From contig MFAE01000005.1 in NCBI GenBank assembly GCA_001774495.1, forward strand, positions 26,583 to 90,582: a DNA stretch of 64,000 nt, written 5' to 3'. Under the pieces are notes generated by a model. That model did not search any database. It was not told the origin of the DNA and saw only the letters and a list, made by a program, of their open reading frames with translations. The position numbers were made by a program, and so were the translations under genes. Shown here in pieces: positions 7,906 to 56,544 of this stretch; position 1 is the stretch's first letter; each line of letters starts with the position of its first letter. Source of the stretch: Candidatus Campbellbacteria bacterium RIFOXYC2_FULL_35_25 (GTDB taxonomy: Bacteria; Patescibacteriota; Minisyncoccia; Phycocordibacterales; UBA12079).

Positions 7906-8370
7906 TTACTCTATATTTATAATTTTATAATCTACTTGCCCTGCGGGTGCCTTAAATGAAAATGTTTCCCCTTTCTTCTTTCCAAGCATTGCGCTAACCA
8001 AAGGAGACTTGGTGGAAATCTTGTTCTGGGCACTATCGGACTCTTCTGCCCCAACAATCTTGTAAGTCACACAATCTTCATTTCCTCTTTTACAAATAGT
8101 AACCGAACGCCCAATACCAACAACGTCTTTGCTCCCTTCTGTAATAATTTCAGCAGTCTTCAAAACATTTTCTACTATCATAATTCGATGTTCCAACTCT
8201 GCCTGAGCTTCTCGTGCTTGATGATATTCTGCATTTTCTTTTAAATCACCCATAGAACTAGTTTGGCCGAGCTCGGCGGCGATTTCTTTTCTCTTTGTTC
8301 CTTTCAAGAATTTTAATTCCTCTTCCAGTTCTTTAAATTTTTCTTTTGTTATATATTCTTTCTGTTCCAT
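7906..8370 (-). CDS. greA: transcription elongation factor GreA
   Basis: 154 aa, N-terminal coiled coil with GDLKENAEY motif, C-terminal FKBP-like domain. Confidence 0.9.
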   Translation of the reverse strand: MEQKEYITKEKFKELEEELKFLKGTKRKEIAAELGQTSSMGDLKENAEYHQAREAQAELEHRIMIVENVLKTAEIITEGSKDVVGIGRSVTICKRGNEDCVTYKIVGAEESDSAQNKISTKSPLVSAMLGKKKGETFSFKAPAGQVDYKIINIE

Positions 8371-9247: not shown

Positions 9248-9345
9248 ACGTTTAATTATATATTAATTAGTAAGTGGGTGGTAGGAATAAATTAAAAAAG
9301 GTTTTAACTAAAAACTATCAACTATAAACTATAAACTAAACAAAT

Positions 9346-9618
9346 ATGGCACATAGAAAAGCTGGGGGATCAGCAAAAAACCTAAGAGATTCAAATCCTA
9401 AATATTTAGGAACTAAATTATATGACGGACAAACTGCAAAAGTTGGTTCTATTTTGGTACGCCAAAGAGGGACTAAAATTTTACCAGGAACTAATGTAGC
9501 AGTAGGAAAAGACCATACTCTATTCGCAATGAAAGAAGGGACGGTAAAATTTGGCAAAAAAAGAAAAGCCAATTTTGACGGGTCAGTAAAGATAAGAAAA
9601 GTTGCAAATATTGTTTAA
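9346..9618 (+). CDS. rpmA: 50S ribosomal protein L27
   Basis: [22 protein letters not shown]...; G-less ACTATAAACTA leader directly upstream, no SD. Confidence 0.9.
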
Positions 9619-9699: not shown

Positions 9700-10149
9700 C
9701 TATTCTTTTTCTGCAGTAATCTTTAAAGTGAAACTAAACTCTTTACTTCCTACTTTTAGTTTTATTACATGCTCGGAAGCCTCTTTTATCGGTTTTTCTA
9801 ATACAATAAAATCTTCACCAATATCCAAAGCTTTTTGGTCTTTTATCACATCAACAATTGCTTTCTTGTCTATCCCAGCAAATAAATGTCCTTCTTTATT
9901 TACTTTAGTTGTTATATTTATAACAGAATCTTTTAATTTTAGGATATCTTCCATCAATTCAGCTTCCTCTTTAACCTGTTTCAGTTGTTGTTTTTCTTTC
10001 AAAATTTCTATCTCTTTTTTAGCGTCTTTAGTCGCTAGTTTTGCTAATTTTTTAGGAATCAAAAAATTCAAAGCATAACCATCAGCTATGTTTTTTAAAT
10101 CATATTTTTTTCCAACCTTTGGAACATTTTGTAGTAAAATAATTTTCAT
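9700..10149 (-). CDS. rplI: 50S ribosomal protein L9
   Basis: MKIILLQNVPKVGKKYDLKNIADGYALNFLIPKKLA typical L9 N-domain. Confidence 0.9.
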   Translation of the reverse strand: MKIILLQNVPKVGKKYDLKNIADGYALNFLIPKKLAKLATKDAKKEIEILKEKQQLKQVKEEAELMEDILKLKDSVINITTKVNKEGHLFAGIDKKAIVDVIKDQKALDIGEDFIVLEKPIKEASEHVIKLKVGSKEFSFTLKITAEKE

Positions 10150-11888: not shown

Positions 11889-12162
11889 GATTATTTCTCC
11901 CAAAATATTATGAACTTCTTTCCTCCCCTTGTCCTCTGTTGTTAATAGTAGCACATAACTATGCATTATGTCAATGGTTTGTTATATTTCAACAGCTATA
12001 CAGCACCTTAAACCAAAAAAGAGTCCCCAACTATTGTATTTCTAATATCAAAAACATACAGTATAATAAAATAGAAGTTGTGATATAAAAAGAAACAAAA
12101 AATTTACAGAATAAATTTTTTTAACTTATTACTTGCTACTTATTCACTTACTACTATTTTTT

Positions 12163-15315: not shown

Positions 15316-15600
15316 AACAACTCCTCCTTATACTCAATATTTGACTAAGATGAACATCTCAAAAAATCTATAGATATAGTAATACTAATTGACTCATTTG
15401 TAAATAGTAAGAAAAAATTTTGAGAAGGCTATAACAACGAAAAACAAGGCGAATTTTGACTCCGTCAAAATTCGCCTTGTTACTTAATACTTATTACTTA
15501 ATACTGGGGATAAAAATCTTCGATTTTTATCCCCACTTCCTCCCCACTTTAATATCTTTTAAAGGTTTGGGCATTTTTTTCATTGTGCTAGAATACTTCA

Positions 15601-23053: not shown

Positions 23054-23364
23054 AAAAAAGTTTTCAACATTTTTAACTTATCAAAAAATAGTGTAGTATT
23101 CGCTGATGTTCCCAGAAAATAAAAACCGTAATATAAAAAATGAATATGATATCCTCTTAATTTTTATGTTAATGGGAACAGTAATCACCGGTGTTTTTTT
23201 ATTTAAAGTGTCATCTTTTGTTGCGGTAAAAAGCTTTGATTTATTGATGTTAGCAACGGTCAGTAGTTTTTAATTTTTTTATAGAGTAAAATATAAATAT
23301 CTTTTAAAAAAATATTTTATAAATTAATTCTATAAACTATCAACTATAGACTACAAACTTAAAT

Positions 23365-25040: not shown

Positions 25041-25104
25041 CCCTCGACACAGCAAAAGAAAAAAGACGAATAAATTCGTCTTTTTTCTTTTGCTGTGTCG
25101 AGGG
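25041..25104. repeat. 64-bp perfect palindrome (30-bp arms, loop taaa) whose right arm continues into the partial tRNA-Phe 3' copy
   Basis: ccctcgacacagcaaaagaaaaaagacgaa taaa ttcgtcttttttcttttgctgtgtcgaggg. Confidence 0.85.
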
Positions 25105-25148
25105 GCGGGCTCGGACCGCCGACCCTTCGCTCTTCAGGCGAATGCTCT
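25095..25148 (-). pseudogene. partial tRNA-Phe copy (3' 54 nt: acceptor 3' strand, T arm, anticodon arm, D-stem 3' strand), att-like direct repeat of intact gene
   Basis: 54/54 identity with 25289-25342 then divergence. Confidence 0.8.
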
Positions 25149-25290
25149 CCCTCCTATTGCCTGCTCGCCCTTCGGGACTCGCTTCGGCAATTTTTTGCTT
25201 CGCAAAAACCAGATAAAAAGCTTAAACGCTTTTTATCCAACTGAGCAACGCTCAGTTGCTAGAGCATTAATAAATTTAGTTTATACAGTG

Positions 25291-25363
25291 TGTCGAGGGG
25301 CGGGCTCGGACCGCCGACCCTTCGCTCTTCAGGCGAATGCTCTACCAACTGAGCTACCTCGAC
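25291..25363 (-). tRNA. tRNA-Phe (anticodon GAA)
   Basis: GTCGAGG/CCTCGAC acceptor, D arm TAGCTCAGTTGGTAGAGC, anticodon stem TTCGC/GCGAA loop CTGAAGA, T stem GGCGG/CCGCC with unusual T-loop TCCGAGC. Confidence 0.85.
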
Positions 25364-26007: not shown

Positions 26008-26091
26008 CATGTATAAGAAATTTAAAAAACAAAAAAATCCCCTCTAGGGATTTTTTTGTTTTACTATAATCTATAAACTATCTACTACCAA

Positions 26092-26325
26092 CTATTTCAA
26101 CAATTCTTCAATTCCATTTTTATCAAAACCAAAAACAACTGTTCCATCAATAACAATAACAGGAACTCCCATTTGCCCATCTGTTAGTTTTAACAATTCT
26201 TCTCTCTTTTCTTCACTTCCTGATACATCAATTTCTTCAAACTCAACTCCTTTTTCTCTAAAAAAATCTTTGGCCATTAAACAATAAGTACAAGTTGGTG
26301 TTGAATAAATAATTACTTTTTTCAT
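26092..26325 (-). CDS. glutaredoxin-like protein (CxxC thioredoxin fold)
   Basis: 77 aa, MKKVIIYSTPTCTYCLMAK..., cis-Pro VPVIVIDG. Confidence 0.85.
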   Translation of the reverse strand: MKKVIIYSTPTCTYCLMAKDFFREKGVEFEEIDVSGSEEKREELLKLTDGQMGVPVIVIDGTVVFGFDKNGIEELLK

Positions 26326-28254: not shown

Positions 28255-28293
28255 TAAAAAGGTTTAGCAACAGTTGTTGCTAAACCTTTTTTT
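28255..28293. terminator. hairpin ggtttagcaacagttgttgctaaacc + T-run
   Basis: between convergent 27999..28223 and leuS. Confidence 0.7.
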
Positions 28294-28326
28294 ACTTACT
28301 ACTTGATACTTGCTACTTATTACTTA

Positions 28327-30777
28327 CTACTCATTACTCTCTACCACAATGTTTAAAATTCTATTTTTGACGTAAATGATCTTTTTGGGTTCTTTTCCTT
28401 CAAGCCATTTTTTTATCAATTCGCTTGCAAGAGCTTTCTTGCTAACATCCTCTTCCTCAGTTCCCTCTTCTATTTCTATAGTCTCTCTAACTTTTCCATT
28501 TACCTGAACGGCTATTTTGTGGATACTGTCTTTAGACAAGCTCTCATCAAATTTTGGCCAACTTTCATCTTGAATCAAACTTTCATTTCCCAACTGGTGC
28601 CAAAGCTCTTGTGTAATATGCGGAGCAAAAGGAGAAAGTATTGTTAAAAATGTTTGATAATCTTCTTTTGAGATACTTGATTTTTTTACTGTGTTTATAA
28701 ATTTCATCATATCAGAAACAGCAGTATTATAAGCCAACTCATCTATACCTTTCGTCATTCTTTTAATTGTCTTATGCAATTCCCTAACAACATCTTCAGA
28801 ACTTTTTTCTTTTAGTTCATCTTTGGTAAACCAAACTTTTTCCAAAAATCTATAAACTCCCACTATATTATCTTCATTCCACATTACCTCGTCTTCCAAT
28901 GGTGCAGCAAAAAGCATATAAGTCCTTACGGAATCAGCCCCAAAACTTTTAACCATATCATCTGGATTAACCACATTACCCTTTGATTTGCTCATTTTCT
29001 TGCCCTGCGCGTCCAAAACCATCCCTTGGTGCCTTAGCTTCAAAAACGGCTCATCAAAGTCTAGAAGGCCTATTTTGTTCATCGCTTTTGTGAAAAAACG
29101 AGCAAATAATAAGTGCATATAAGTATGTTCGGCCCCACCAATATACAAATCAACCGGCAACCATTTCTTACGAATTTCTGAACAAAACTCAGAATCATTT
29201 AGAGCATCTGGATATCTTAAAAAGTACCAAGAAGAATCAACAAAAGTGTCCATGGTGTCATATTCGGGAGTCCAACCTTTTCCAAAAATTTTTTCAGTTC
29301 TTTCTTTAAATTCTTTTGAAGCCCCTAATGGAGAAACTCCCTTTGGTTTAAAATCAACATCGATGGGAAGAATCCAAGGAAGATGCTCTTCAGGAACCAA
29401 GGTCGCCTTACCCTCGGGAGAATAAACGATCGGAATCGGACAACCCCAATATCTCTGTCGAGAAATTGACCAATCTCTTAAACGATAATTGGTTGTCATT
29501 TCCCCACCAACAAATTCTGTAATTTTCTTCTTAGCTTCTTCGGAGTTCATTCCATTGAATTGTCCTGATTCCATAAGTAACCCAAAACCTATCGTTGCAA
29601 AACCAGACTCACGAGCACTTTTTATTTTTAATTCTGCTAATCCTGGAATAATTTCGTCAACAGATTTAACCTCAGCTATAACTGGCTTAATTTCAATATC
29701 TTTTTGTAATGCAAACTGAAGGTCTCTATCATCATGAGCCGGCACCGCCATAATCGCACCAGTTCCATAGTTAACCAACACATAATCAGCAATGAAAACT
29801 GGTATTTCTTCGCTGTTAGCTGGATTAATAGCCGAAATTCCCTCAAGCTTCACCCCTGTCTTCTCTTTACCCTCTATTCTCTCCATTTCTGTCTTATTTT
29901 GAGCTTTAATCCCGTACTCCTCAACCTCGTCCCAGTTTGTAATTTGGTCCTTCAATTCGGAAACAAGCGAATGTTCTGGGGCAAGCACCATATAAGTAGC
30001 ACCAAACAAAGTGTCAGGACGAGTAGTAAATACCTCTATTTCGTTCGCTGTTAGCTGTGATCTGTGAGCTGTCAGCTTAAACTTAATCTTTGCTCCTTCA
30101 CTCTTCCCTATCCAATTTCTCTGATTTTTTTTAGTATGTTCTGGCCAATCAACTTTGTCTAAGTCATTAATTAAATCATCGGCGAAATCTGTAATCTTGA
30201 AAAACCACCCTGGTATTTTTTTCTGTTCAATTTGGGTTCCGCATCTTTCACACTCACCATTAAGAACTTGTTCGTTCGCAATTACAGTCTGGCAAGAAGA
30301 ACACCAATTTGCTTTTTGTGTACTTTGATAAACTAAATCATTTTTATAAAATTGTTGAAAAATCCATTGAGTCCATTTGTAGTATTTTGGATCAGAGGTT
30401 ACTGCCTGTTCATCAAAATCATAATTAAGACCCAACATCTTCATTTGTTTAATATAATTGCTGATATTTTTTTCAGTAGTTTGGGCGGGGTGAACTCCTG
30501 TTTTTATTGCAAAGTTTTCAGCCGGCAAACCAAAGGCGTCAAACCCTTGAGGGTGCAAAACATTAAATCCCTGCATCTTTTTGAAACGGTAATATACATC
30601 ACTCGCGGTATAACTTTCAGTATGTCCCATATGAAGACCATCACCGGACGGATAAGGAAACATATCAAGCATGTAAAACTTATTTTTAGTATCGTCTTTG
30701 TCTATTTTAGAAACCTTATTTTCCTCCCAAATCTTTTGCCATTTCCCCTCAATATCATTGTGATTGTATTTTTCCAT
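28327..30777 (-). CDS. leuS: leucyl-tRNA synthetase
   Basis: 816 aa, HMGH and KMSKS motifs, editing (CP1) domain. Confidence 0.95.
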   Translation of the reverse strand: MEKYNHNDIEGKWQKIWEENKVSKIDKDDTKNKFYMLDMFPYPSGDGLHMGHTESYTASDVYYRFKKMQGFNVLHPQGFDAFGLPAENFAIKTGVHPAQTTEKNISNYIKQMKMLGLNYDFDEQAVTSDPKYYKWTQWIFQQFYKNDLVYQSTQKANWCSSCQTVIANEQVLNGECERCGTQIEQKKIPGWFFKITDFADDLINDLDKVDWPEHTKKNQRNWIGKSEGAKIKFKLTAHRSQLTANEIEVFTTRPDTLFGATYMVLAPEHSLVSELKDQITNWDEVEEYGIKAQNKTEMERIEGKEKTGVKLEGISAINPANSEEIPVFIADYVLVNYGTGAIMAVPAHDDRDLQFALQKDIEIKPVIAEVKSVDEIIPGLAELKIKSARESGFATIGFGLLMESGQFNGMNSEEAKKKITEFVGGEMTTNYRLRDWSISRQRYWGCPIPIVYSPEGKATLVPEEHLPWILPIDVDFKPKGVSPLGASKEFKERTEKIFGKGWTPEYDTMDTFVDSSWYFLRYPDALNDSEFCSEIRKKWLPVDLYIGGAEHTYMHLLFARFFTKAMNKIGLLDFDEPFLKLRHQGMVLDAQGKKMSKSKGNVVNPDDMVKSFGADSVRTYMLFAAPLEDEVMWNEDNIVGVYRFLEKVWFTKDELKEKSSEDVVRELHKTIKRMTKGIDELAYNTAVSDMMKFINTVKKSSISKEDYQTFLTILSPFAPHITQELWHQLGNESLIQDESWPKFDESLSKDSIHKIAVQVNGKVRETIEIEEGTEEEDVSKKALASELIKKWLEGKEPKKIIYVKNRILNIVVESNE

Positions 30778-30812: not shown

Positions 30813-30852
30813 ACTATACTAAAATTTACGCGACCGCGTAAATTTTAGTATA
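30813..30852. repeat. 40-bp sequence, copy 1 (38-bp perfect palindrome with 18-bp arms; extended to 23-bp arms 30810-30857); identical to 31529-31568
   Basis: actatactaaaatttacgcgaccgcgtaaattttagtata; 75 bp downstream of stop of 30928..31482. Confidence 0.9.
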
Positions 30853-30927: not shown

Positions 30928-31482
30928 CTACTTAGTTAAACCAAAAACTTCTTTTAACCACTCTTCGTTTTCTATTCTATTTACTTCCATATACAAAACA
31001 TCTTCATCAGCAAAAAAATTTGTTTTAAGTAGAAAAATAAGCTCTTCACACTCATAAGGAAGAACCCATACACTATTTTGTAATTTAATAAACCCTAATC
31101 TATCTAAATTATGACGAAGTAATTCTCGAAGTCTCTTTTTTTTCTCTGGAATATCAAAAATAATAACTCTCCATTTTTTATCCCAATTCTTTGGCTTTTC
31201 TATTTCTATTTCTTCTAATTCATATTGGGAAATCATTTCCCTACCCTTTTTTGTAAGTTCTATAAATTCAACACTGCCTTTTTTTACTTTTTTTATTAAA
31301 CCTTTCTTTAATAGTGTTTTTACAGAATTATTCATATAATATTTTTCTTTCGACCAACCCTTCTTTTTTGGTAAAAACATTTTTAAAGATTGCAAAGCAT
31401 TTGGAGCTAAAACAGCCATACCAACCAAGCCGGTAATCGCTATTGTGGATAAAATTATTTTTTGATAATTTATATTTTTCAT
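30928..31482 (-). CDS. membrane-anchored wHTH + Cas2/VapD/PaaX_C-like (ferredoxin-fold) domain protein; orphan, no cas1 or CRISPR array
   Basis: N-terminal TM; LKKGLIKKVKKGSVEFIELTKKGREM wHTH-like; WRVIIFDIPEKKKRLRELLRHNLDRLGFIKLQNSVWVLP resembles Cas2 core (RVLVFFDLP...GF.MLQ.SV). Confidence 0.6.
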   Translation of the reverse strand: MKNINYQKIILSTIAITGLVGMAVLAPNALQSLKMFLPKKKGWSKEKYYMNNSVKTLLKKGLIKKVKKGSVEFIELTKKGREMISQYELEEIEIEKPKNWDKKWRVIIFDIPEKKKRLRELLRHNLDRLGFIKLQNSVWVLPYECEELIFLLKTNFFADEDVLYMEVNRIENEEWLKEVFGLTK

Positions 31483-31528: not shown

Positions 31529-31568
31529 ACTATACTAAAATTTACGCGACCGCGTAAATTTTAGTATA
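31529..31568. promoter_or_regulatory. 40-bp sequence, copy 2 (identical palindrome), 46 bp upstream of start codon of 30928..31482: candidate operator
   Basis: perfect identity with 30813-30852; position in promoter region; AT-rich promoter between it and ATG. Confidence 0.5.
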
Positions 31569-31610
31569 TCTTGATAAGTAAGATCGAGATTGTTAAGCAT
31601 CAAAAAAACA

Positions 31611-31633
31611 AAAACCGCCAAAGGCGGTTTTTG
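31611..31633. terminator. hairpin aaaaaccgcc aaa ggcggttttt
   Basis: downstream of 31695..32249 stop, preceded on minus strand by stop-rich TAGTAGCGAGTATTAAGTAATAAGTAG. Confidence 0.7.
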
Positions 31634-31694
31634 TTTACTTTCTACTTATTACTTAATACTCGCTACTAGAAATTTAAATAAAAATTTTCAATTT

Positions 31695-32249: not shown

Positions 32250-32343
32250 ATTATTTATATTATTGAGATTAATAAAAATTCTAATAATAAACTAGAAATT
32301 GAATAGAGAATCATGAATTAAGAATTCTGAATCATGATTCTTT

Positions 32344-32410
32344 ATTCGTGATTCGTGATTCGTGATTCGTGATTCGTGATTCGTGATTCGTGATTCGTGA
32401 TTCGTGATTC
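32344..32410. repeat. heptanucleotide tandem repeat (ATTCGTG) x 9.5, perfect
   Basis: attcgtg units 32344-32406 plus attc; intergenic between SPFH stop (32432) and start of 31695..32249. Confidence 0.95.
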
Positions 32411-33208: not shown

Positions 33209-33372
33209 GGTTAATTTAGTTTATAGTCTATAGTTTTTAGTCTATAGAAAAATATAGTATTAATAATATAATTATAACACAGTCTAGTTTTTAGTTGATA
33301 GTTGATAGTTTTTAGGAAAAAGAAAAAGCCCGTCCCGGAAAAAATTTCATGAGTCTCTCAATTCCTTGCTTT

Positions 33373-33438
33373 TTTTAAAAGAAATTTTTCTGACAAAAAT
33401 GACGACCGTCATTTTTATCAGAAAAATTTCTTTTAAAA
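33373..33438. repeat. 66-bp near-perfect AT-rich palindrome (32-bp arms, 1 mismatch, centre gacg ac cgtc)
   Basis: tttaaaagaaatttttctgacaaaaatgacg / cgtcatttttatcagaaaaatttcttttaaaa. Confidence 0.85.
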
Positions 33439-33485
33439 AACCATGGTGATCTATCCTAACCAATTTAAATATTTTACGAGAAAAA

Positions 33486-33953
33486 AGCCCGTCCCGGAAA
33501 CCGGGGCGGGCTACAAAACAACAAAAAGATAGCTCGGGATCGCTGGGTGGCGGTTTGAAAATTTCATTGACCGTCGCCTTCAGGGCGGTTTTTTACGTCG
33601 CAGGCGTCTCTTTTTGGTGTTTTTCTATTTGGAAACCTCCCCATATAAACAGAGAAGCTCCACCCATAAGAGCAAAACAAATATAGAAAAAAAGCAGGGC
33701 AAAATGATGAAAGAAAAAATCATTTAACCAATTTCGATAAAAATCATTTAACAGAAGAATATTAAGATCTGAAAAAAACAATACTGATACCATCAAGAAA
33801 AAACCAATGGCCACAGAGCAATAAGCAATAGACTTCATAGCACTCCTCCTTTCTTTTTTATACTTTTTTATGAAAGACAAAAAATTCTAACCATAGACTA
33901 ACAACATAGACGAGGGTTGTCAATCATTTTGGCTTCTTTTACAATTATTTAGA
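33486..33953. repeat. 468-bp direct repeat, copy A (apparently 100% identical to 34461-34928); contains gene 33593..33880 and GC hairpin AGCCCGTCCCGGAAACCGGGGCGGGCT
   Basis: base-by-base comparison of the two stretches; identical 95-aa translations. Confidence 0.9.
33593..33880 (-). CDS. hypothetical small membrane protein (2-3 TM), copy A
   Basis: 95 aa; identical to 34568..34855. Confidence 0.5.
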   Translation of the reverse strand: MSFIKKYKKERRSAMKSIAYCSVAIGFFLMVSVLFFSDLNILLLNDFYRNWLNDFFFHHFALLFFYICFALMGGASLFIWGGFQIEKHQKETPAT

Positions 33954-34085
33954 AATTAAGAATTTAAAATTAATTTGATTTTAAAATTGGATGCGGAACG
34001 AAGGTTTGAGGTAGTTATTTGGAAAAAGAAAAAGCCCGTCCCGGATAACCGGAACGGGCTGCAAAACAACATTTGGTGTTTTTGT

Positions 34086-34292
34086 TTATAAAAAAAGTTT
34101 TTCACCAAAAGCGTTAATCCCTTTGCCGTCAGGGTAATGAACCCTTTTACATACCGGGCACGCCGGCATATCCTCAAATTGAGGATTTGAACATCACCCC
34201 CCTCCAGAGACCATCATACTTTTTGAAGGAGAATCTTGATCTATTGCCTCCCCACAGTCAGTACATGGAAATTGAAAAGTATCTTGTCCCAC
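34086..34292 (-). pseudogene. small zinc-ribbon ORF (CTDCG...CPVCK) with strong SD (AAGGAGG-6nt-GTG) interrupted by in-frame TGA at 34194-34196 next to a G6 tract
   Basis: translation MGQDTFQFPCTDCGEAIDQDSPSKSMMVSGGG*CSNPQFEDMPACPVCKRVHYPDGKGINAFGEKLFL*; upstream TTGACA promoter-like. Confidence 0.35.
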
Positions 34293-34460
34293 TCTTACCT
34301 CCTTATAATGGCTCTGGTTTTTTGTACCGGGTTAAATAATCTATCGTTAGATTAACAGATCAGATTATATTGTCAACAAAAAATTAATTTGATTTTAAAA
34401 TTGGATGCAGAACGAGGAGTTGAGGTAGTTTTTAGTTGATAGTTTTTAGGAAAAAGAAAA

Positions 34461-34928
34461 AGCCCGTCCCGGAAACCGGGGCGGGCTACAAAACAACAAA
34501 AAGATAGCTCGGGATCGCTGGGTGGCGGTTTGAAAATTTCATTGACCGTCGCCTTCAGGGCGGTTTTTTACGTCGCAGGCGTCTCTTTTTGGTGTTTTTC
34601 TATTTGGAAACCTCCCCATATAAACAGAGAAGCTCCACCCATAAGAGCAAAACAAATATAGAAAAAAAGCAGGGCAAAATGATGAAAGAAAAAATCATTT
34701 AACCAATTTCGATAAAAATCATTTAACAGAAGAATATTAAGATCTGAAAAAAACAATACTGATACCATCAAGAAAAAACCAATGGCCACAGAGCAATAAG
34801 CAATAGACTTCATAGCACTCCTCCTTTCTTTTTTATACTTTTTTATGAAAGACAAAAAATTCTAACCATAGACTAACAACATAGACGAGGGTTGTCAATC
34901 ATTTTGGCTTCTTTTACAATTATTTAGG
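34461..34928. repeat. 468-bp direct repeat, copy B
   Basis: identical to 33486-33953. Confidence 0.9.
34568..34855 (-). CDS. hypothetical small membrane protein, copy B (identical to 33593..33880)
   Basis: 95 aa identical protein. Confidence 0.5.
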   Translation of the reverse strand: MSFIKKYKKERRSAMKSIAYCSVAIGFFLMVSVLFFSDLNILLLNDFYRNWLNDFFFHHFALLFFYICFALMGGASLFIWGGFQIEKHQKETPAT

Positions 34929-35083
34929 CCGAAATACCCAGCCATAGCAATCAGCGGGAAACATGGGTACAGAACTTTTTTCAGTTTCCTAAACCGTGTC
35001 GGCCCAGGAGGATGAGTCAGCCCCCAAATTGATCCCACAAAACCGACAAGAAAAACAATAACGCATGCTGATTTAATATCCAT
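34895..35083 (-). CDS. hypothetical small protein (weak)
   Basis: 62-aa ORF whose 3' end overlaps the duplicated segment. Confidence 0.25.
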   Translation of the reverse strand: MDIKSACVIVFLVGFVGSIWGLTHPPGPTRFRKLKKVLYPCFPLIAMAGYFGLNNCKRSQND

Positions 35084-35293
35084 ACCTTCTCCTTTTTCGC
35101 CACTATGTTAAAAAGCTTCCCAAAATTCTTGTTCTATAATAACGTCTATTTTACTAATTGTCAATACTTGTATTAAGTTAATTTCAAAATTAAATGCAGA
35201 ACGAGGAGTAAGAGTAAAATTTTGTGAGACGTATTTTCAATACGGTGAACAAAATTTTGCGAATTACGACAAAGCTCTGCGCCAATTTTGGAA

Positions 35294-36388
35294 TTAAATC
35301 CTAAATTCGATGACATCCCCATCCTTCACAACATATTCCTTCCCTTCTATCCTCTTCAAACCCTTTTCTCGCGCGACGGCGTGAGAACCACAAGAAATCA
35401 AATCCTGCCAATTTATTACATCAGCTTTGATAAACTTGTCTTTAAAATCTGTGTGAATAGCTGTGCCTGCCATAGGAGCTGCCCAACCACGCTTTATTGT
35501 CCAAGCTCTAGATTCATCTTCCCCTGTTGTGAAATATGTAATCAAATCTAACAATTCATATCCTGTCCTGATTAAACCATCAATATCATCAGCAGAACCA
35601 CCGAGCTGTTGTTTAAATTCTTCTTTTTCATCAGGCGCAAAGTCTTGTAATTCATGTTCAATCTGAGCATCAACTTTTACATACTTAGCCCCAGTTTCTT
35701 CAAAAAACTTTATCAGTTGGTCATATCTTTCGTCTTCAATTTCATCCAAATTTTGCCCACCCGACTTTTTGTTCAAAATATAAAAAATTGGTTTCATTGT
35801 AAGCAAGTGAAGAGCTTTAACAATTTTTATTTCTTCTTCGTCCATCTCCACAGTTGAAGCAAACTTTCCATCGTCTAAAACTTTTTCTATTTTTTGTAAA
35901 ACTCCTTTTTCAATAATTGCATTTTTATCTTGCCTTCTTACATCCTTTTCAACATTATCCAATCTCTTGGTAACAGTTTGAAAGTCTGCCATTATTAATT
36001 CAAGATTAATAACTTCCACATCATCCATTGGATCAATTTTCCCTTCCACGTGAATAATTTTGTCGTCTTCAAAAATTCTCACCAATTCGGCGATAGCATC
36101 TACTTCTCTAATATTGGCCAAGAATTTATTTCCCAAACCTTCTCCAGAGTGAGCTCCGGCAACCAGACCAGCGATATCAACAAACTCAATTGCCGCTGGA
36201 ACCATTTTTTTTGATTTTGAAAATTCGTTTAATTCTTCTAACCTTTGGTCAGGAACAGAAACAACCCCGACTGATGGGTCGATAGTACAAAATGGGTAGT
36301 TTTCTGCTTCGACAGACTTTTTGGTCAAAGCGTTAAACAAAGTTGATTTTCCTACGTTGGGCAAGCCCACAATACCTATCGAAAGCAT
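35294..36388 (-). CDS. ychF: ribosome-binding ATPase YchF (Obg-family GTPase)
   Basis: 364 aa, G1 GLPNVGKST, coiled-coil insert, C-terminal TGS domain. Confidence 0.9.
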   Translation of the reverse strand: MLSIGIVGLPNVGKSTLFNALTKKSVEAENYPFCTIDPSVGVVSVPDQRLEELNEFSKSKKMVPAAIEFVDIAGLVAGAHSGEGLGNKFLANIREVDAIAELVRIFEDDKIIHVEGKIDPMDDVEVINLELIMADFQTVTKRLDNVEKDVRRQDKNAIIEKGVLQKIEKVLDDGKFASTVEMDEEEIKIVKALHLLTMKPIFYILNKKSGGQNLDEIEDERYDQLIKFFEETGAKYVKVDAQIEHELQDFAPDEKEEFKQQLGGSADDIDGLIRTGYELLDLITYFTTGEDESRAWTIKRGWAAPMAGTAIHTDFKDKFIKADVINWQDLISCGSHAVAREKGLKRIEGKEYVVKDGDVIEFRI

Positions 36389-40004: not shown

Positions 40005-40252
40005 AGGTTTAGTCGTTAGTTATTAGTTTATAGTTTTTAGAAAATTTTTAAAAACAAAAACTTATTTGCAATTAATTTATAATTAATAAAATAATAACAC
40101 AGGAGGATAGAAAATAAAAATAAAAAACACTTCTAGTTTTTTTCATACTTAAATTTATATAGGCATGAAAAAAACCGCCGAAGCGATTTCTTTCATAGTA
40201 CCTATTAAGTAGCAAGCTAAATAATAAGTACTTTAATTAGTATACTAAAGTG

Positions 40253-40342
40253 AGAAAAAAAAGCAAGCTTCTTGTTGATAACTCAAATTTAATTTACAGA
40301 GTCTTAGTCTCTGTAAATTAAATTTGAGTTATCAACAAGAAG
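40253..40342 (-). terminator. exceptionally long perfect hairpin (34-bp arms, 7-nt loop) followed on minus strand by U9: probable murJ terminator
   Basis: cttcttgttgataactcaaatttaatttacagag tcttagt ctctgtaaattaaatttgagttatcaacaagaag; A-run 40253-40262 on plus. Confidence 0.65.
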
Positions 40343-40456
40343 TAATAAGTAGTAAGTAGTGAGTATTAAGTTTCTGGATTGCTTCAGGCTTCGCCTTCGC
40401 AAAGACAAAAATCGTTTGCTATAAGCTATCGGCTATTAGCTATTAGCTTTCTAATA

Positions 40457-45726: not shown

Positions 45727-45845
45727 AGAAAATTTTTACGAAAATTTTAGTATTAAGTAATAAGTAGTAAGTATTAAGTATAAATGAAAAAGTTAAAAGT
45801 TGAAAGTTTATAATTTCTAGCGAGGACGAAAGGGAGGTATAGTCC

Positions 45846-46289: not shown

Positions 46290-46594
46290 GGTTCTGAATT
46301 GCTTCGAAATTACTCCCCGAGGCCTCACCTCTCCCGTCGTTTCGCTTCGCTCCACTTCTCCTCGAGGACTTAAAATTTTTTAGGAAAAGTTTTAAGCAAC
46401 GACGGGCCTCCGTCCGTAATTTCTCGCAAAGACGACGAAAGGCAGAGCCTTTCGTCGTCTTTTAAAAATTAATTTATTAAAAATTTTTAAACCCCCACCC
46501 CTTTCTTTTCCAAAACAAAGGTGTGGGGGTTTAAAAATTAAAAATTAAAAATTTCAGATGTTTTTTCTACTCACTACTCACTACCAACTACTCA

Positions 46595-47527
46595 CTATTC
46601 CTGTGCAACTTTTTCTATACTAGCAGAAACTAATTTTCCCACGTCTTTGAAACGGCCTTCTCGGGAAGAACCTAAAACAGAAACAATGATAGGATGACCT
46701 ATGCCAATATCAAAAGCGATAACTAAATTTCCTCCAGCCAAATCTGTAAAGCCGGTTTTAGAAGCAATTATTCCGGGGATGGCTTCCGCGTATTGATTGG
46801 TATTGTAAACAGTATGAGTAAAATCTTTTGATTTTATTTCCAAACTCGAATATTTTGTAGCCTCAAGAATCTGCGGTTTCTCTTTTATGATCTGCCCCAT
46901 TAGCATAGCCACATCTTTTGCCGAACCATAGGCCCCACCAACATCCTGACTTACATCTAACCCAGATTCGTTTAAAAAATAAGTTTGGATTAATCCTAAA
47001 TTTTGAGCTTTTTGGTTCATTTCTTTAATAAACATTTCTTCCTGTGTTTGTCCCTCTCCTGTATTAATAGAACCTATGATAGAGGCAAGGGCGTGCGCTC
47101 CATCATTAGATGAAGATACTAAAGTAAAGTCCAAAACATCAGCGAGTCTCCATTTTTCACCCATCAAGAAACCACTATCCCCTTCTTCGTTGATGTCCTG
47201 ACTGTCTATGGTAACAATGATTCCTTCTGGAACTAATTCTGAAACAACTAGTGCTGTCATTAACTTTGTTAAAGATGCCAAAGGTAACTGAGCTTCCCCA
47301 TTCATTGAATAAATTATTTTATTTTCGTAAGTGTCCCAAACGAAAGCTGATTTTGCTTCCAAAACCAAGTCTTCAAATGGATCTATTTTTTCTTCCGCAA
47401 TATTGACCTCTGATTCAATTATTATTTCTTCTTTTTTACTTAAAAAATAAAAAAGAAAAACGCCCACCAAAACGACAGTGGTTGTTATTAGAACAATAAT
47501 TTTATTTTTATTTTTTGCGAAATTCAC
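46595..47527 (-). CDS. D-alanyl-D-alanine carboxypeptidase (S11, PBP5-like)
   Basis: 310 aa, SLTK, SSN, KTGFT motifs, N-terminal TM. Confidence 0.8.
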   Translation of the reverse strand: MNFAKNKNKIIVLITTTVVLVGVFLFYFLSKKEEIIIESEVNIAEEKIDPFEDLVLEAKSAFVWDTYENKIIYSMNGEAQLPLASLTKLMTALVVSELVPEGIIVTIDSQDINEEGDSGFLMGEKWRLADVLDFTLVSSSNDGAHALASIIGSINTGEGQTQEEMFIKEMNQKAQNLGLIQTYFLNESGLDVSQDVGGAYGSAKDVAMLMGQIIKEKPQILEATKYSSLEIKSKDFTHTVYNTNQYAEAIPGIIASKTGFTDLAGGNLVIAFDIGIGHPIIVSVLGSSREGRFKDVGKLVSASIEKVAQE

Positions 47528-47557: not shown

Positions 47558-48109
47558 TTAAAAGCTTTCAAAGCCTTTTTGTTGTGCTTGGATTTGATTA
47601 TCTTCAATTTCTTTTTGAGTTTGTTCATATTCAGGTAATTCTTTCAGTTCAGAAATCCCCAGATAGGACAATAATTCAAATGTTGGTAAGTAAAAAAAAC
47701 TTCTTTGATTATTTTCATCGGTTTTTCTTTCAACCAATCCTCTAACCAAAAGATTTCTCAAAATAGTTGCCGAGTTAACCCCTCTAATATAATCAATCTC
47801 TGATTTCCTCACAGGCCCGCGATACAGAACAATAGAGAGAGTTTCCAAACTGGCTTTACCTAAATCTTTTGATAATTCTTCCTTCTTTAATGACTCAATA
47901 ATTTCGTGGGCCTCAGGACCAGTGGCAAGCATTACCTTGTCATCCTTAAAAATTAATCTTATACCCCGGTCCTCTAACTTTATTTTTAATTCTTCTAAAC
48001 TAGTTTTAATATCATCTTCTTTTACATTCAAAATGCTTGCCAATTTTTTATATGACATGGCCTCCCCTTTAAAAAATAATATCGCTTCAATTTGTTTATC
48101 TAGATTCAT
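47558..48109 (-). CDS. scpB: segregation and condensation protein B
   Basis: 183 aa, tandem wHTH ScpB motifs. Confidence 0.85.
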   Translation of the reverse strand: MNLDKQIEAILFFKGEAMSYKKLASILNVKEDDIKTSLEELKIKLEDRGIRLIFKDDKVMLATGPEAHEIIESLKKEELSKDLGKASLETLSIVLYRGPVRKSEIDYIRGVNSATILRNLLVRGLVERKTDENNQRSFFYLPTFELLSYLGISELKELPEYEQTQKEIEDNQIQAQQKGFESF

Positions 48110-48217
48110 AATATTTTAGTCGATAGTTTATAGACTATAGTTTATAGTATAAAATTATATTATTAAAGTATAAATTATCTAAATTCTATAGACTATCAAC
48201 TAAAAACTATAGACTGT

Positions 48218-48967
48218 CTAATTATAACTTGGGACACTTACTTCTTGGTTTTCAATACTTATATCATCAAAATTAGTGGTTTGTTTAACCATAATAATTC
48301 CCTGTTTTACTAATTCCAACAACGCCAAAAAACTTATAACAACATTTACCTTCTCTGTTTTTCCTTTCTGAGAAAAATCATTGAAACTCATCTTTATGTT
48401 TTCCCGAACTCTTTTTGTAAGACTATCTATCATCTCCTCTAAACTAATAACAGTCTTTACGACTTTTTTAGGAACAATTTCTACTTTTGGAAGATTATTT
48501 AAAACATCCTTCATCAATAAAAAAATATTTTTTGTTGTAATCTTTTTATCGGGAGAAAAGATTGGCTCTATATTTCTAAACTCGGATTTTGCAAAAAAGA
48601 TTTCCTTTCCAAATTTATCATTTATATAAATACTCAACTCTTTTGTTCTTTTATAAATTTTTAATCTCTTTCCTAAATCATCAATACTATGTTCTTCTTC
48701 TAGGGTTAGGTTCAAAGTTGGCAAAAGAGATTTAGATTTTATCAACATTAAAATAGAAGCGACTAAAACAAAGTCTGCGGAATTTTTAATTTTTGACAAT
48801 GAAGAAAAACTAGTAAAATTTTGATCATTTCTAATATAAGCGATATAATCGTCTGTTATTTCAGCCAAAGAAACATCGTTTATATGAAGTTTTCTTTTTT
48901 CAATTAAATTTAAGAGTAGATCAAGAGGGCCTTCAAAAATCTCTGTTTTTACTTTGTAATCTTCCAT
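48218..48967 (-). CDS. scpA: segregation and condensation protein A (start at Met13 of ORF-track model)
   Basis: FEGPLDLLLNLIEKRKL..ITDDYIAYI ScpA N-terminal motif; leader ACTTGATACTTACTACTTTATACTTATTCAC before ATG. Confidence 0.85.
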   Translation of the reverse strand: MEDYKVKTEIFEGPLDLLLNLIEKRKLHINDVSLAEITDDYIAYIRNDQNFTSFSSLSKIKNSADFVLVASILMLIKSKSLLPTLNLTLEEEHSIDDLGKRLKIYKRTKELSIYINDKFGKEIFFAKSEFRNIEPIFSPDKKITTKNIFLLMKDVLNNLPKVEIVPKKVVKTVISLEEMIDSLTKRVRENIKMSFNDFSQKGKTEKVNVVISFLALLELVKQGIIMVKQTTNFDDISIENQEVSVPSYN

Positions 48968-49027
48968 GTGAATAAGTATAAAGTAGTAAGTATCAAGTAT
49001 CAAGTTTGAAACTTTTAATTAGTATTT

Positions 49028-49725: not shown

Positions 49726-51558
49726 CTACTCACTTTTCATCATTTTTAAGAAAATATCTTGTGAAATATTAACCTTTCCTCGGTCTTTCATCTTCTTTTT
49801 TCCTTTCTTTTGCTTTTCTCTTAATTTCATCTTTCTCGTAATATCTCCCCCGTACATATGAGCGGTTACGTCTTTTTTCATGGCAGAAATTTTCTTTGAT
49901 GCCAGAATTCTCCCCATGGCTTTAACTTGTACTTTCATGACGAACATTTGACGAGGTAAGATTTTATATAATTTTTCAACAATTTTGTCTGCTTCTTCTT
50001 GGGCTCTTCTCCTGGAAACTACTCTTGAGAAAGCTGTGATGACTTCATCAGCGACAAGGATATCTAAACGAACGACATCAGAATCCCTATGGTCGTTCAT
50101 CTTATACGACAAAGAAGCAAAACCAGAGGAAAGACTTTTTATTTCATCAAAAAAGTTCCTCATTAATTCTCTTAAAGGCATGAGAATATCAATGGAGATT
50201 CGATTGTTTCCGAAATCTTTTGAGTCACCTATTTCGGCCTCGTGGTCAAAAAATGTTTTCATCAAAGCTCCCATATACTCTGAAGGAGTTATTATATTAA
50301 CGTTAGCCCATGGCTCTATAATTCTGGCGACCGTTCCATCATCGGGAAATAGTGATGGAGAATAAATTGTTTCCTTTTTTCCATTTTTATATTCAACCTC
50401 GTAAGTGATACTTGGATGGGTAATGACAAGATCCAAATCAAACTCTCTTTTTAATCTTTCAGTAATAATTTCTAGGTGGAGCATCCCCAAAAAACCACAA
50501 CGGAACCCTCTTCCTAGTGAATTGGATTTTTCTTCCTCATAGGAAAAAGATGAATCGGTTAGCTTTAATCTATCAAGCGATTGTTTTAACAAATCAAATT
50601 CATCAGAATCTTCAGGGAAAATTGAAGCCCAAACTACTGGCTCTGGTGTCATATAACCGCTCAAAGATTCCAACGGTTTTCGGCTCAATGTAATGGTATC
50701 CCCCACAGAAGCTACTCCTGGCTTTTTTATTCCGGTAACAATATAACCGATTTCACCAGCCCCTAAAAATTCTTTGGGCTTTTCATCAGGACAAAAAATA
50801 CCCACTTCAAGAGAATTAAATTTTTCTCCGATAGCTTTAAAAATTAAGTTTTCATTCTTGGAAACCTTTCCGTCCAGCACTCTCACATACACGATAATCC
50901 CTCGATGTGTTGAGTATTTAAAATCAAAAACAAGCGCCCGGAAACTATCCGTTTCTTCTAAAATTTCTTTGGGCGAAGGAATTTTTTCTATGATTGATTT
51001 TAAAATTTCTTCAACCCCTTCCCCTGTTTTTCCCGAGGCCTCGATGATGTCATCTTCATCACAATCGACAAGACGACTTAATTCTTTTTTTACTTCATCT
51101 ATACGAGCCAAAGGAGAATCAACTTTACTCAAAACAGGGATGATAACCATCCCTATTTTTTTTGCCATCTCTAATGTTGTTAGTGTTTGAGCCTGGACCC
51201 CCTGAGTAGCGTCAACTAGCAAAATAGACCCCTCAACGGCCCTTAAAGCCCTAGAAACCTCGTAGGAGAAGTCTATATGTCCAGGGGTGTCTATCAAGTT
51301 AAGAATATATTTTTTGCCACCCATTTCATAATCCATTCGGGCTGGTTGCATTTTTATGGTAATTCCCCGTTCCCTTTCAAGTTCCATACTATCCAAAAAC
51401 TGCTCCTTCATTTTTCTTTTTTCGACAGTATTAGTAACCTCGAGCATTCTGTCAGCAAGTGTGCTTTTTCCATGGTCAATGTGGGCTATAATTGAAAAAT
51501 TTCTTATATTAGATAAATCCATAGACATCAGTATAAGGTAGCAAGTAGCTAGTAGCAA
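49726..51558 (-). CDS. lepA: elongation factor 4 (LepA); true start probably internal (MSMDLSN...)
   Basis: IIAHIDHGKSTLADRM G1, DTPGHIDF, LepA C-terminal domain. Confidence 0.95.
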   Translation of the reverse strand: MLLATCYLILMSMDLSNIRNFSIIAHIDHGKSTLADRMLEVTNTVEKRKMKEQFLDSMELERERGITIKMQPARMDYEMGGKKYILNLIDTPGHIDFSYEVSRALRAVEGSILLVDATQGVQAQTLTTLEMAKKIGMVIIPVLSKVDSPLARIDEVKKELSRLVDCDEDDIIEASGKTGEGVEEILKSIIEKIPSPKEILEETDSFRALVFDFKYSTHRGIIVYVRVLDGKVSKNENLIFKAIGEKFNSLEVGIFCPDEKPKEFLGAGEIGYIVTGIKKPGVASVGDTITLSRKPLESLSGYMTPEPVVWASIFPEDSDEFDLLKQSLDRLKLTDSSFSYEEEKSNSLGRGFRCGFLGMLHLEIITERLKREFDLDLVITHPSITYEVEYKNGKKETIYSPSLFPDDGTVARIIEPWANVNIITPSEYMGALMKTFFDHEAEIGDSKDFGNNRISIDILMPLRELMRNFFDEIKSLSSGFASLSYKMNDHRDSDVVRLDILVADEVITAFSRVVSRRRAQEEADKIVEKLYKILPRQMFVMKVQVKAMGRILASKKISAMKKDVTAHMYGGDITRKMKLREKQKKGKKKMKDRGKVNISQDIFLKMMKSE

Positions 51559-51586
51559 GTAGCAACTGAAAATTTTTTCGAAGTTT

Positions 51587-52858: not shown

Positions 52859-52943
52859 AATTTGGTTTTTAGTTGTTAGTTATTAGTATTCTTCAGAATT
52901 TTTTTAGCTGTAAGCTGTCGGCTGTGAGCTGTAAGCTTTTCTA

Positions 52944-56330: not shown

Positions 56331-56544
56331 GATTATTTCCAGTGGTTTTTATATCACCCACAATCTCCCACTTACCTACCATTATATACCACCAGATACC
56401 ACAATACAAAACAAGTTATCCACATTCAATATGCCCTTTAAAACCAAAATTTATAATAAAAAAACCCGCAGTCGCCTGAGCGGCCGCGGGGTCTACCTAA
56501 TTTGCTCCAGTGAATACATCAGCTGAAATTTCTTTCTTGTAAAA

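Follow-up and report, generated by a model that had tools for sequence, protein, structure and literature searches.

The question raised by a 64,000-nucleotide (nt) stretch of contig MFAE01000005.1 from Candidatus Campbellbacteria bacterium RIFOXYC2_FULL_35_25, referred to here as the window, is what stands in front of those genes that have no Shine-Dalgarno (SD) sequence. The original prediction had described G-free tracts abutting the start codons of rpmA, yqeY, an SPFH gene, scpB and an open reading frame (ORF) of 75 amino acids (aa), and had taken them for either a dedicated SD-independent initiation element or a shared promoter or UP element. The window, 81% of which is coding, was analyzed together with approximately 15 kb of flanking sequence from the same genome. 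Two conclusions are well supported. Leaders of the ACTATAAACTA type form a strand-specific family of heptanucleotide arrays, in which an invariant ACTA is followed by three variable nucleotides and which lie in 5′ untranslated regions (UTRs). These leaders are members of a clade-wide class of period-7 arrays found in untranslated spacers against start and stop codons. The closest LepA proteins of relatives are 80–81% identical and MurF is 73% identical to that of Candidatus Campbellbacteria; on this protein comparison the window is placed in the Patescibacteria/Parcubacteria (Paceibacteria). The same population, almost base-for-base identical, is present in at least 10 groundwater assemblies.

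At all five of these starts, tandem arrays of ACTA plus three nt were seen to adjoin the ATG in the mRNA sense. The unit is not the mixture of ACTATA, ACTAA and AAACTA that had been described; it is a heptamer, ACTAWMR, with 4–5 units per array. Tandem Repeats Finder (TRF) reported a period of 7 and 3.7–5 copies at each site. The rpmA array (9304..9345, plus strand) reads AACTAAA AACTATC AACTATA AACTATA AACTAAAC, followed by an A-rich linker, AAAT, and the ATG at 9346. It has 4.7 copies by TRF and lies in a G-free run from 9302 to 9347. The yqeY array (23328..23364, plus strand) adjoins the ATG at 23365 and contains one G. Three others are on the minus strand: that of the SPFH/Band_7 gene (33209..33250, ATG 33208), approximately 20 nt 3′ of its promoter; that of the 75-aa ORF (40005..40041, ATG 40004), with a minimum free energy (MFE) of −0.5 kcal/mol; and that of scpB (48110..48150, ATG 48109). 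Pfam identified the downstream products as L27 (Ribosomal_L27, rpmA), YqeY, Band_7 and ScpB, and gave no match for the 75-aa ORF. A murF leader had been overlooked (52859..52890, minus strand, ATG 52858); it reads ACTAATA ACTAACA ACTAAAA ACCAAATT and has an MFE of 0 kcal/mol. On a flanking contig of the same genome, rpmF, which encodes L32, also has an ACTA array against its ATG in the sense orientation. Thus there are seven start-abutting ACTA arrays, with the last ACTA core 5–11 nt from the ATG. Two are on the plus strand and five on the minus strand (four in the window plus rpmF). All are sense, and since sense leaders occur on both strands, array orientation tracks the gene and not one strand of the DNA.

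Chance does not account for the heptad repeat. The pattern AACTAWMRACTA has 17 matches in the window compared to 0.14 expected, and none of 100 dinucleotide-preserving shuffles of the window reached 17. The G-free character emphasized in the original prediction is a poorer guide. It holds for rpmA (no G in 40 nt), but the leaders of yqeY, the SPFH gene, the 75-aa ORF, scpB and murF each contain one or two G. G-free runs of at least 30 nt number 198 on both strands compared to 73 in shuffles. They are commonplace in this DNA, and the lack of G was therefore set aside as a defining feature; it is the heptad repeat that exceeds chance.

The ACTA arrays are not the only repeats of this length. When arrays of at least four units with at least 80% lag identity were sought, 23 were found at period 7, compared to 0–3 at periods 6 and 8–15 and none in shuffles. 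A curated set of 30 period-7 arrays spans 978 nt, or 8% of all intergenic sequence in the window. The core families are ACTAnnn, TACTTnn, ACTACnn, GCTGTnA, GCTATnn, TTGCTAC, AATTTnT, AACTTTn and (CACGAAT)n. Only one of 19 strong arrays lies within a coding sequence, in a window that is mostly coding. Measured against random placement in intergenic DNA, arrays ending no more than 12 nt from a start codon number nine compared to 2.0 expected (P<2e-4), and arrays abutting a stop codon number six compared to 2.0 (P=0.014). Those at 3′ ends typically occupy the gap that separates a stop codon from its terminator hairpin; in some cases, for example in leuS and in the genes for glutaredoxin and the carboxypeptidase, the stop codon is part of the array. 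Of 53 intergenic arrays in 16 related loci, 17 adjoin a start codon where 3.2 were expected, and 10 adjoin a stop codon where 3.0 were expected (both P<5e-4). The phenomenon is therefore clade-wide.

The anatomy of the unit was examined by placing 97 units from 25 arrays in register and comparing neighbours. Mismatches were found in 1–6% of neighbouring units at positions 2–4, compared to 35–71% at positions 5–7 (chi-square p=1e-30). Over 40 units of the ACTA family, no change was seen in the core's C, T and A, while the spacer was mismatched in 50–57% of adjacent units. In the TACTT family position 6 was mismatched in 90% of neighbouring pairs. Since variation is limited to three positions, uniform decay cannot account for it; either the core is under constraint or some process changes the spacer positions alone. 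Lack of structure by itself leaves the invariant ACTA core unexplained.

Perfect repeats with variable copy number, as in contingency loci, were found only in the (CACGAAT)n array. This array (GAATCAC/CACGAAT; 32308..32410, minus strand) is 3′ of the SPFH gene, and consists of nine perfect units plus degenerate units of the GAATnnn type, 12.6 copies by TRF. Nine units were present in the window and in six other assemblies, eight in one and four in one, with a scaffold gap in another; these numbers come from short-read assemblies, in which collapse of repeats is possible. The flanks were identical across the assemblies compared. In contrast, both ACTA arrays near the SPFH gene were identical in 10 of 10 assemblies, and the rpmA array was identical in its 10 independent assemblies. 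It appears from this difference that perfect arrays shift in steps of seven, while interrupted arrays are stable. Phase variation of the ACTA arrays was rejected, given their imperfect units and the identity of the three that were compared.

The SD sequence was scored in 65 genes of the window as pairing to an assumed canonical anti-SD, an assumption justified by the presence of clear AAGGAGG sites. An SD was found in 19 genes (29%). None of the 11 array-led genes has one, as opposed to 19 of the 54 others (Fisher p=0.025), which bears out both the absence of SD claimed for the leader genes and its correlation with the arrays. The further claim that other genes use AAGGAGG is true of these 19 and fails for 35 with neither SD nor array. 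Genes lacking an SD are of at least three kinds: some look leaderless, some are led by an array, and some have a plain A/T-rich leader. When folding was computed from −40 to +20 around the start codon, array-led genes had a mean MFE of −2.7 kcal/mol, weaker than the −5.6 of the remaining SD-less genes (p=0.013) and the −6.4 of genes with an SD (p=0.002). The mean number of G residues was 2.4 in array-led genes, 5.2 in genes with neither array nor SD, and 8.7 in SD genes. Units reading CUAUAG are predicted to be able to form small hairpins. Among the 11 start-abutting arrays of all families, the G-poor strand is the sense strand in 10. An Rfam scan of the entire window revealed no leader-type RNA family; only four tRNAs reached the gathering score, and the idea that the ACTA leaders belong to a known structured RNA family was dropped.

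Are these arrays transcribed, or are they parts of promoters? Transcription starts were inferred from consensus promoter boxes only. The SPFH gene has an extended −10 box, TGTTATAAT (33271..33279, minus strand), that ends 62 nt before the ATG, which puts its leader array within the 5′ UTR. That of the 75-aa ORF, TGTTATTAT, ends 86 nt upstream of the ATG. Upstream of scpB, TTTAGA-18-TATAAT ends at 48154, 3 nt before the array, and given the position of this promoter-like box the array is essentially the entire putative 5′ UTR. The rpmF promoter, TTGCTT-17-TARATT, is upstream of its array and is conserved in three genomes, two of them Campbellbacteria-like relatives. Where the UTR is long (62 nt in the SPFH gene, 86 nt in the 75-aa ORF and approximately 70 nt in rpmF), the array still adjoins the ATG rather than occupying another part of the UTR. 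The ACTA arrays have no consistent −10 hexamer at a leaderless distance; the best TAnnnT ends 8–12 nt from the ATG or is absent. With promoters upstream and no consistent −10 box inside, the ACTA arrays are most likely transcribed 5′ UTR, judging from these sequence landmarks.

The promoter half of the original prediction is not supported for the ACTA arrays, but looks right for two arrays of other families. The TTGCTAC array upstream of lepA (51529..51565, minus strand; four units) overlaps the promoter, and TTGCTA-17-TATACT-7-ATGGAT is conserved in a relative (L010) that has three units. In another (L001) there is no lepA array, yet TATACT-7-ATGGAT is kept with a different −35 candidate. The TACTTnn array of scpA (48968..49005, minus strand) adjoins the ATG at 48967 and holds TTGATA-17-TATACT, which ends 7 nt before the ATG; the array is conserved in a strain that is 96% identical in DNA (L044). 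It may be the promoter of a leaderless transcript. A −10 box, often TGnTAnnAT, 5–8 nt and mostly 7 nt before the ATG was also observed at the starts at 8370, 9247, 19842, 25794, 27187, 30777 and 44314 (minus strand) and at 15601 and 57463 (plus strand). Many murJ orthologues in related Paceibacteria have the layout TGnnATAAT-7/8-ATG, as at the leaderless-type starts here. The layout suggests that leaderless mRNAs are common in this genome.

Related genomes have arrays with other cores, including AATTTCC/GAAAATT, AAGTAnT, AGCTnTn, AACCCTA, GTAAGGT and GACTAAT, and array density differs greatly among them. The same genes may carry arrays of different families. At rpmF, ACTAnnn here is replaced by AGCTnTn in one relative (L054) and by nATTTTn in another (L058). 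In L054, SMC has TAGTnnn in place of ATTCnnn, and murF has AAGTAnT in place of ACTAnnn. The MraY-like gene, with TACTTAn here, has an ACTA-type array in the same place in L046–L048. The lepA array, present in L010 and absent in L001, has been gained or lost between close relatives. Persistence at the same gene with a change of family favors a need for an array at that place over a need for one core. A long-lived slippage array that undergoes concerted evolution would give the same picture. In L054, which belongs to the Campbellbacteria, the sequence before murF (9975–10002) is AAGTAGT AAGGAGT AAGTATT AAGTT ATG; one of its units amounts to an SD (AAGGAG), a hint that an array may turn into an SD site and vice versa.

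A query of IMG/VR with ACTAWMR x 3.5 revealed at least 120 stretches, compared to an estimate of approximately 1 expected by composition. Viral ORFs were counted when initiated by ATG, at least 60 codons long and starting from −3 to +15 nt downstream of the array, and arrays were dereplicated before counting. Among the listed matches, 90 dereplicated arrays had an ORF start in the ACTA sense in 23 cases and in the antisense in one (p=3e-6). Some viral arrays share the layout of scpB: an extended −10 box, the array and the ATG. With the reversed pattern, ATCARMW, the A/C-rich strand was again the sense strand, by 13 to 4 among the matches listed. This control is partial, since ATCAACT is a rotation of ACTATCA, and such arrays were removed before the count. 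It follows that the strand rule applies to A/C-rich heptads in general, most strongly to ACTA. Perfect and interrupted ACTA arrays were common in phage and giant-virus contigs (L073–L192) with GC contents from 20% to 66%. In one group of related phages, (ACTATAA)3-4 lies just before a conserved ORF that starts MSFTREQIE or MSYTREQIE.

The explanation that we favor, and to which we give an even chance, is that the ACTA leaders are slippage-born, core-constrained 5′ UTR arrays that replace the SD and give an unstructured initiation region. An origin by 7-nt replication slippage is supported, with perfect arrays still varying in copy number in the population. In long-lived arrays the three positions that differ between neighbouring units would halt slippage, while selection would keep the 4-nt core. 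The 5′ array would take the position of the SD and keep the initiation region G-poor and unstructured. It could thus serve as an SD-independent segment for ribosome loading or standby in genes that include those for L27 and L32. The fixed 7-nt register and the invariant core make the array a candidate site, speculatively, for a single-strand-binding partner such as S1, a cold-shock or other OB-fold protein, or the 30S subunit. That the array would enhance initiation, and further that it would be read by S1, an OB-fold protein or 30S, are steps of inference from an unstructured leader without SD. The dedicated SD-independent element of the original prediction survives with respect to position, sense orientation, absence of SD and weak folding, but it does not stand alone; it is one family of a period-7 class.

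Several observations weigh against this explanation. The 35 genes that have neither SD nor array, approximately nine of them leaderless in appearance, manage without either. The fold z-scores of single leaders are unremarkable, ranging from −2.3 to +1.5. The G-poor sense orientation is a tendency, not a rule, since arrays of other families precede starts in either orientation (18743 here; TAGTnnn before SMC in L054). Four of the 11 ACTA arrays are not leaders; two follow terminators and two are antisense at 3′ ends. Orthologous leaders swap core family among relatives, which argues against one fixed sequence-specific reader, and a separate binder for each of at least five core families is unlikely in a genome of this size. 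In the strain L044 both the scpB and the scpA array are retained, and the single substitution falls on a variable position of the unit. This is weakly informative, with 1 change in approximately 100 array nt against approximately 4 expected, and L044 was given up as a test of selection because its divergence is too low.

The arrays could instead be neutral or selfish simple-sequence repeats, generated by a polymerase bias toward 7-nt slippage and surviving where they are harmless, in the short UTRs from promoter to ATG and from stop codon to terminator, so that their position at gene boundaries and the absence of SD would result from tolerance and not from function. This is possible, though not probable. 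Many unrelated core families coexist in one small genome and different ones occur in relatives; one family replaces another at orthologous sites; close relatives differ by the gain or loss of arrays, as at lepA (L001 vs. L010); and the perfect array is polymorphic in steps of 7. Heptamer repeats are abundant in viral contigs of all kinds, among the matches listed; the downstream genes have no common function; and heptanucleotides are the commonest class of long simple-sequence repeats in prokaryotes, as Mrazek (2007) is quoted in PMC4679880. Decay, however, should strike all seven positions, and it is confined to three, with the C, T and A of the ACTA core fixed throughout. The arrays also stay against the ATG in the three long-UTR genes, have a strict orientation bias (7/7 here, and 23:1 in viruses among the matches listed), and are carried by the same genes across several lineages. 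The arrays could also be binding sites for a dedicated oligomeric RNA-binding regulator, with one ACUA core per subunit and the array-led genes co-regulated. A core-plus-spacer anatomy in strict 7-nt register, with 4–5 units, matches the way ring-shaped proteins read RNA, HutP and TRAP being the precedents; the arrays are strand-specific, and overlap with the ribosome landing site would let a bound protein block or recruit ribosomes. MacGregor made the same proposal for TAACTGA repeats, with S1, Csp and CsrA as candidates (PMC4679880), and a partner interacting with heptamer repeats has been inferred in Nostoc (10.1101/2022.06.06.494920). Such a regulator is nevertheless improbable. Its targets (L27, L32, YqeY, SPFH, ScpB, MurF and a small ORF) have no theme, coexisting core families would need a reader each, and the core family changes at orthologous genes between relatives. 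No candidate binder domain was found among 30 proteins scanned in the window. ACTA arrays are also present in many unrelated viral contigs whose GC content ranges from 20% to 66%, and a universal component therefore fits better than a lineage-specific regulator. In the boldest reading, heptads with an ACTR core (ACTAWMR here and in many viral contigs, ACTGATA in Beggiatoaceae and ACTAATG in Nostoc) would be a widespread, hitherto overlooked translation-initiation signal distinct from the SD, read at 7-nt register by a universal single-strand-binding part of the initiation apparatus. In Paceibacteria a "heptad code" of core families would then mark both ends of coding sequences and co-evolve with its reader. 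As a whole this larger proposal is fairly unlikely.

A DNA-level role, in which the arrays are promoter parts (UP elements, −35 or −10 mimics, or a protein site) and transcripts begin at or after the array so that the genes are leaderless, we regard as quite improbable. It draws on the leaderless-type layout in approximately nine genes, the two non-ACTA arrays at lepA and scpA that form such promoters, an ACTA array that overlies the −35/UP region of the SPFH promoter, and dnaE in L054, where the last unit of a T-rich array is the −10 box. In the ACTA arrays, however, the critical −11 A would land on a variable position of the unit, and for the core's invariant TA there is no T at −7. The SPFH gene, scpB, the 75-aa ORF and rpmF have good promoters farther upstream than their arrays, and a promoter role is impossible for arrays located at 3′ ends, between convergent genes or within leuS. 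With no consistent hexamer or distance, this role is not supported for the ACTA arrays and was kept only for those of lepA and scpA. The arrays could also act as insulators: since 7 is not a multiple of 3, a heptamer containing TAA, TAG or TGA places a stop in every frame, and at the boundaries of coding sequences it would halt ribosomes that had passed a stop codon, slipped out of frame or initiated upstream. Three-frame stops on at least one strand are present in 26 of 30 arrays, compared to 4.9 ± 1.9 in non-array intergenic segments of equal length; arrays adjoin both starts and stops; those of leuS, the glutaredoxin gene and the carboxypeptidase gene supply the gene's stop codon; and MacGregor noted the same property in TAACTGA (PMC4679880). 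Large as it is, the effect is mostly arithmetic, because by a rough estimate 70% of AT-rich heptamers carry a stop on either strand. Only 8 of 13 3′-end arrays have stops on the sense strand, without strand bias there. In TACTT and GCTAC leaders only 0–2 sense frames contain a stop, AT-rich spacers are already rich in stops, and three units would suffice where arrays have 4–5. Three-frame stops were therefore rejected as the purpose of the arrays, and this remains a highly improbable explanation.

Three further candidates were discarded. A Rho rut site, considered from general knowledge, is contradicted by the few YC dinucleotides, too short a spacing and the wrong position at the AUG. Primase initiation at CTA or CTG does not fit, as array orientation follows the gene (plus strand for rpmA and yqeY, minus for the others) while the sign of the GC skew is constant. 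Pairing of ACUA with the 3′ tail of 16S rRNA was considered on the canonical tail, to which there is no complementarity.

How do these leaders compare with known repeats? The closest counterpart is the TAACTGA repeat of marine Beggiatoaceae, found also in some Cyanobacteria and Bacteroidetes (MacGregor, 2015; PMC4679880). There are 170 sets of 2–6 copies, of which 147 are forward, usually ending a few nt before a start; almost all are intergenic, and a few overlap the ends of ORFs or lie inside them (PMC4679880). In these regions SD sequences are rare, the repeats cover the place where a ribosome-binding site would be expected, they have no predicted RNA structure, and there are stops in the forward frames; the downstream genes are functionally mixed and include those for ribosomal proteins (PMC4679880). 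The share of genes with an SD is also similar, approximately 25% in that genome (PMC4679880) and 29% here. TAACTGA rotates to ACTGATA, which is ACTR plus three nt, as is the unit here, and both are start-abutting heptamers; the ACTA leaders are sense in 7 of 7 cases, and an SD is present in 0 of 11 array-led genes. The two units are nonetheless related by rotation only, ours being ACTAWMR in a different phylum, the Patescibacteria. TAACTGA sets are mostly perfect, in contrast to units that are non-identical at three positions, and related heptamers are rare as repeats in BOGUAY, whereas several core families coexist here. The arrays here are also enriched at stop codons and terminators, to the same degree as at starts. 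In Nostoc PCC 7120, (GACYAAT)8 overlaps the start of recO, and heptamers occur no more than 30 nt from the starts of at least 13 genes; deletion of the repeat changed regulation in reporter assays, and a binding partner was postulated (10.1101/2022.06.06.494920). GACTAAT rotates to ACTAATG, again ACTA plus three, and ACTAATA occurs here. Cyanobacterial arrays can be much longer and G/C-rich, and neither the core-plus-variable-spacer rule nor the link to stops and terminators has been described for them.

Heptanucleotide tandem repeats beside start codons have reportedly been recorded in cyanobacteria since 1990. The repeats STRR1 (CCCCAGT) and STRR3 (CAACAGT) of heterocystous cyanobacteria, said to have been described by Mazel et al. 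in 1990, read ACTGGGG and ACTGTTG on the other strand, which is a lead and not a result. Phase-variable simple-sequence repeats are likewise short, made by slippage and located between promoter and start, and (CACGAAT)n varies as they do. The ACTA arrays differ from them in being imperfect, stable in 10 assemblies, and associated with housekeeping genes rather than surface or virulence genes. SD-independent enhancers include A/U-rich leaders that bind S1, CA-multimer leaders, and the G-poor, repeat-containing Omega leader of tobacco mosaic virus. They too are G-poor, unstructured repeat leaders at an AUG without SD, a resemblance of function only, for they have neither a 7-nt register nor an invariant tetranucleotide. 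The protein HutP reads UAG-N4, with a 7-nt period, and TRAP reads GAG/UAG repeats. These sites have a short invariant core, fixed spacing and free spacers, but the core here is ACUA and the arrays lie at the ribosome landing sites of unrelated genes and not in one attenuator. No HutP- or TRAP-like domain was found among the 30 proteins scanned; homologues were not sought beyond the window. We found no literature report of heptamer arrays or SD-type leaders of this kind in the Candidate Phyla Radiation or Patescibacteria. What sets these arrays apart is the interrupted core-plus-spacer unit, the coexistence of several families, and equal enrichment at stop codons.

The four ACTA arrays that are not leaders also escaped the original prediction. 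One (33281..33316, minus strand) has the same orientation as the SPFH leader and lies between the T-tract of the upstream terminator and the SPFH −10 box. Another (34422..34448, minus strand) follows a copy of the same terminator module (…GGGACGGGCTTTTTCTTTTTCC) in a local segmental duplication. The duplicated segment, 33300–35300, contains two identical hydrophobic ORFs of 81 aa with strong SDs (33593..33838 and 34568..34813). Within it terminator modules (…CCGGGACGGGCTTTTTCTTTTTCC) are repeated, two of which are followed by ACTA arrays, and promoter-like modules (ACTCCTCGTTCTGCAT…AATTTTAAAAT) are also repeated. A third array (48186..48216, plus strand) is an inverted copy directly 3′ of the scpA stop, and reads TAGTnnn on the mRNA strand of scpA and scpB. 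In a read-through transcript (48106–48222, minus strand) this TAGT-type array and the scpB leader are predicted to fold into a hairpin of −26.3 kcal/mol (z = −3.3). The hairpin would enclose the internal scpB promoter and cover the scpB leader up to the AUG. The fourth (26063..26095, plus strand) is antisense to the glutaredoxin gene and overlaps its stop at 26092; a terminator hairpin follows.

Arrays of the other families are found at both ends of genes. TACTTnn precedes corA (12124..12158, plus strand; ATG 12163), and five TACTTAn units preceded by an AACTTTn array (45745..45812, minus strand) form the leader of the GT4/MraY-like gene, whose ATG is at 45726. The remainder are on the minus strand. 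Seven units of AAGTAnT (28293..28344) supply the last five codons and the stop of leuS and extend to the terminator hairpin. Within 40340..40448, a GCTATnn array (40418–40448) is directly 3′ of the murJ stop and a TACTTnn array (40340–40371) directly precedes a long hairpin. A (G)TAGTGA-type array (46567..46597) overlaps the stop of the D-Ala-D-Ala carboxypeptidase gene and is followed by a terminator, and a GCTGTnA-family array (52906..52937) is directly 3′ of the stop of the penicillin-binding protein gene (52944), upstream of the murF ACTA leader. The sole strong period-7 array in a coding sequence, of the GCTGTnA type, is in frame within leuS (30047..30077). It encodes KLTAHRSQLTAN, just ahead of VFTTRPDT, a conserved motif where the editing domain begins. 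TACTTnn/AAGTAnn arrays recurrently adjoin hairpins, at 15440–15545, 28255–28292, 31606–31636 and 40280–40338 in the window and in two relatives (L056, 186–215 and 10746–10775; L047, 4628–4652). The hairpin reads …AATTTTG(N)nCAAAATT… in several genomes, and hairpin and array may form a composite terminator-plus-array module.

Some neighbouring features were also recorded. An identical 32-nt near-palindrome, ACTAAAATTTACGCGGTCGCGTAAATTTTAGT, is present upstream of leuS (30818–30849) and upstream of a gene of 184 aa (31534–31565). This gene (30928..31482) encodes a PaaX/Cas2-like domain, and the near-palindrome may be the operator for its product. The mraZ upstream region (56331–56400) has repeated GTGGG boxes and TGGTATATAAT, conserved in three genomes. 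Upstream of the rpmA array, in a divergent promoter region (9270–9290), a GTAAGTGGGTGGTAGG stretch resembles TGGTATATAAT. ARAGORN reported two tRNA-Phe(GAA) genes 120 nt apart (25095–25169 and 25290–25363), of which only the second reaches the Rfam gathering score for tRNA.

The ACTA leaders extend start-codon heptamer repeats to the Candidate Phyla Radiation, whose tiny genomes have little room for junk. Any explanation must satisfy four constraints: an invariant 4-nt core with hypervariable spacers, enrichment at both starts and stops, persistence at the same genes despite replacement of the core, and the same strand rule in viruses. If the arrays are only tolerated products of slippage, the finding is mainly a caution for those who hunt motifs. 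Since only 29% of the genes in the window have an SD, and an array leads the genes for both L27 and L32, the arrays are relevant to translation initiation in these bacteria, to the annotation of their genes and to heterologous expression.

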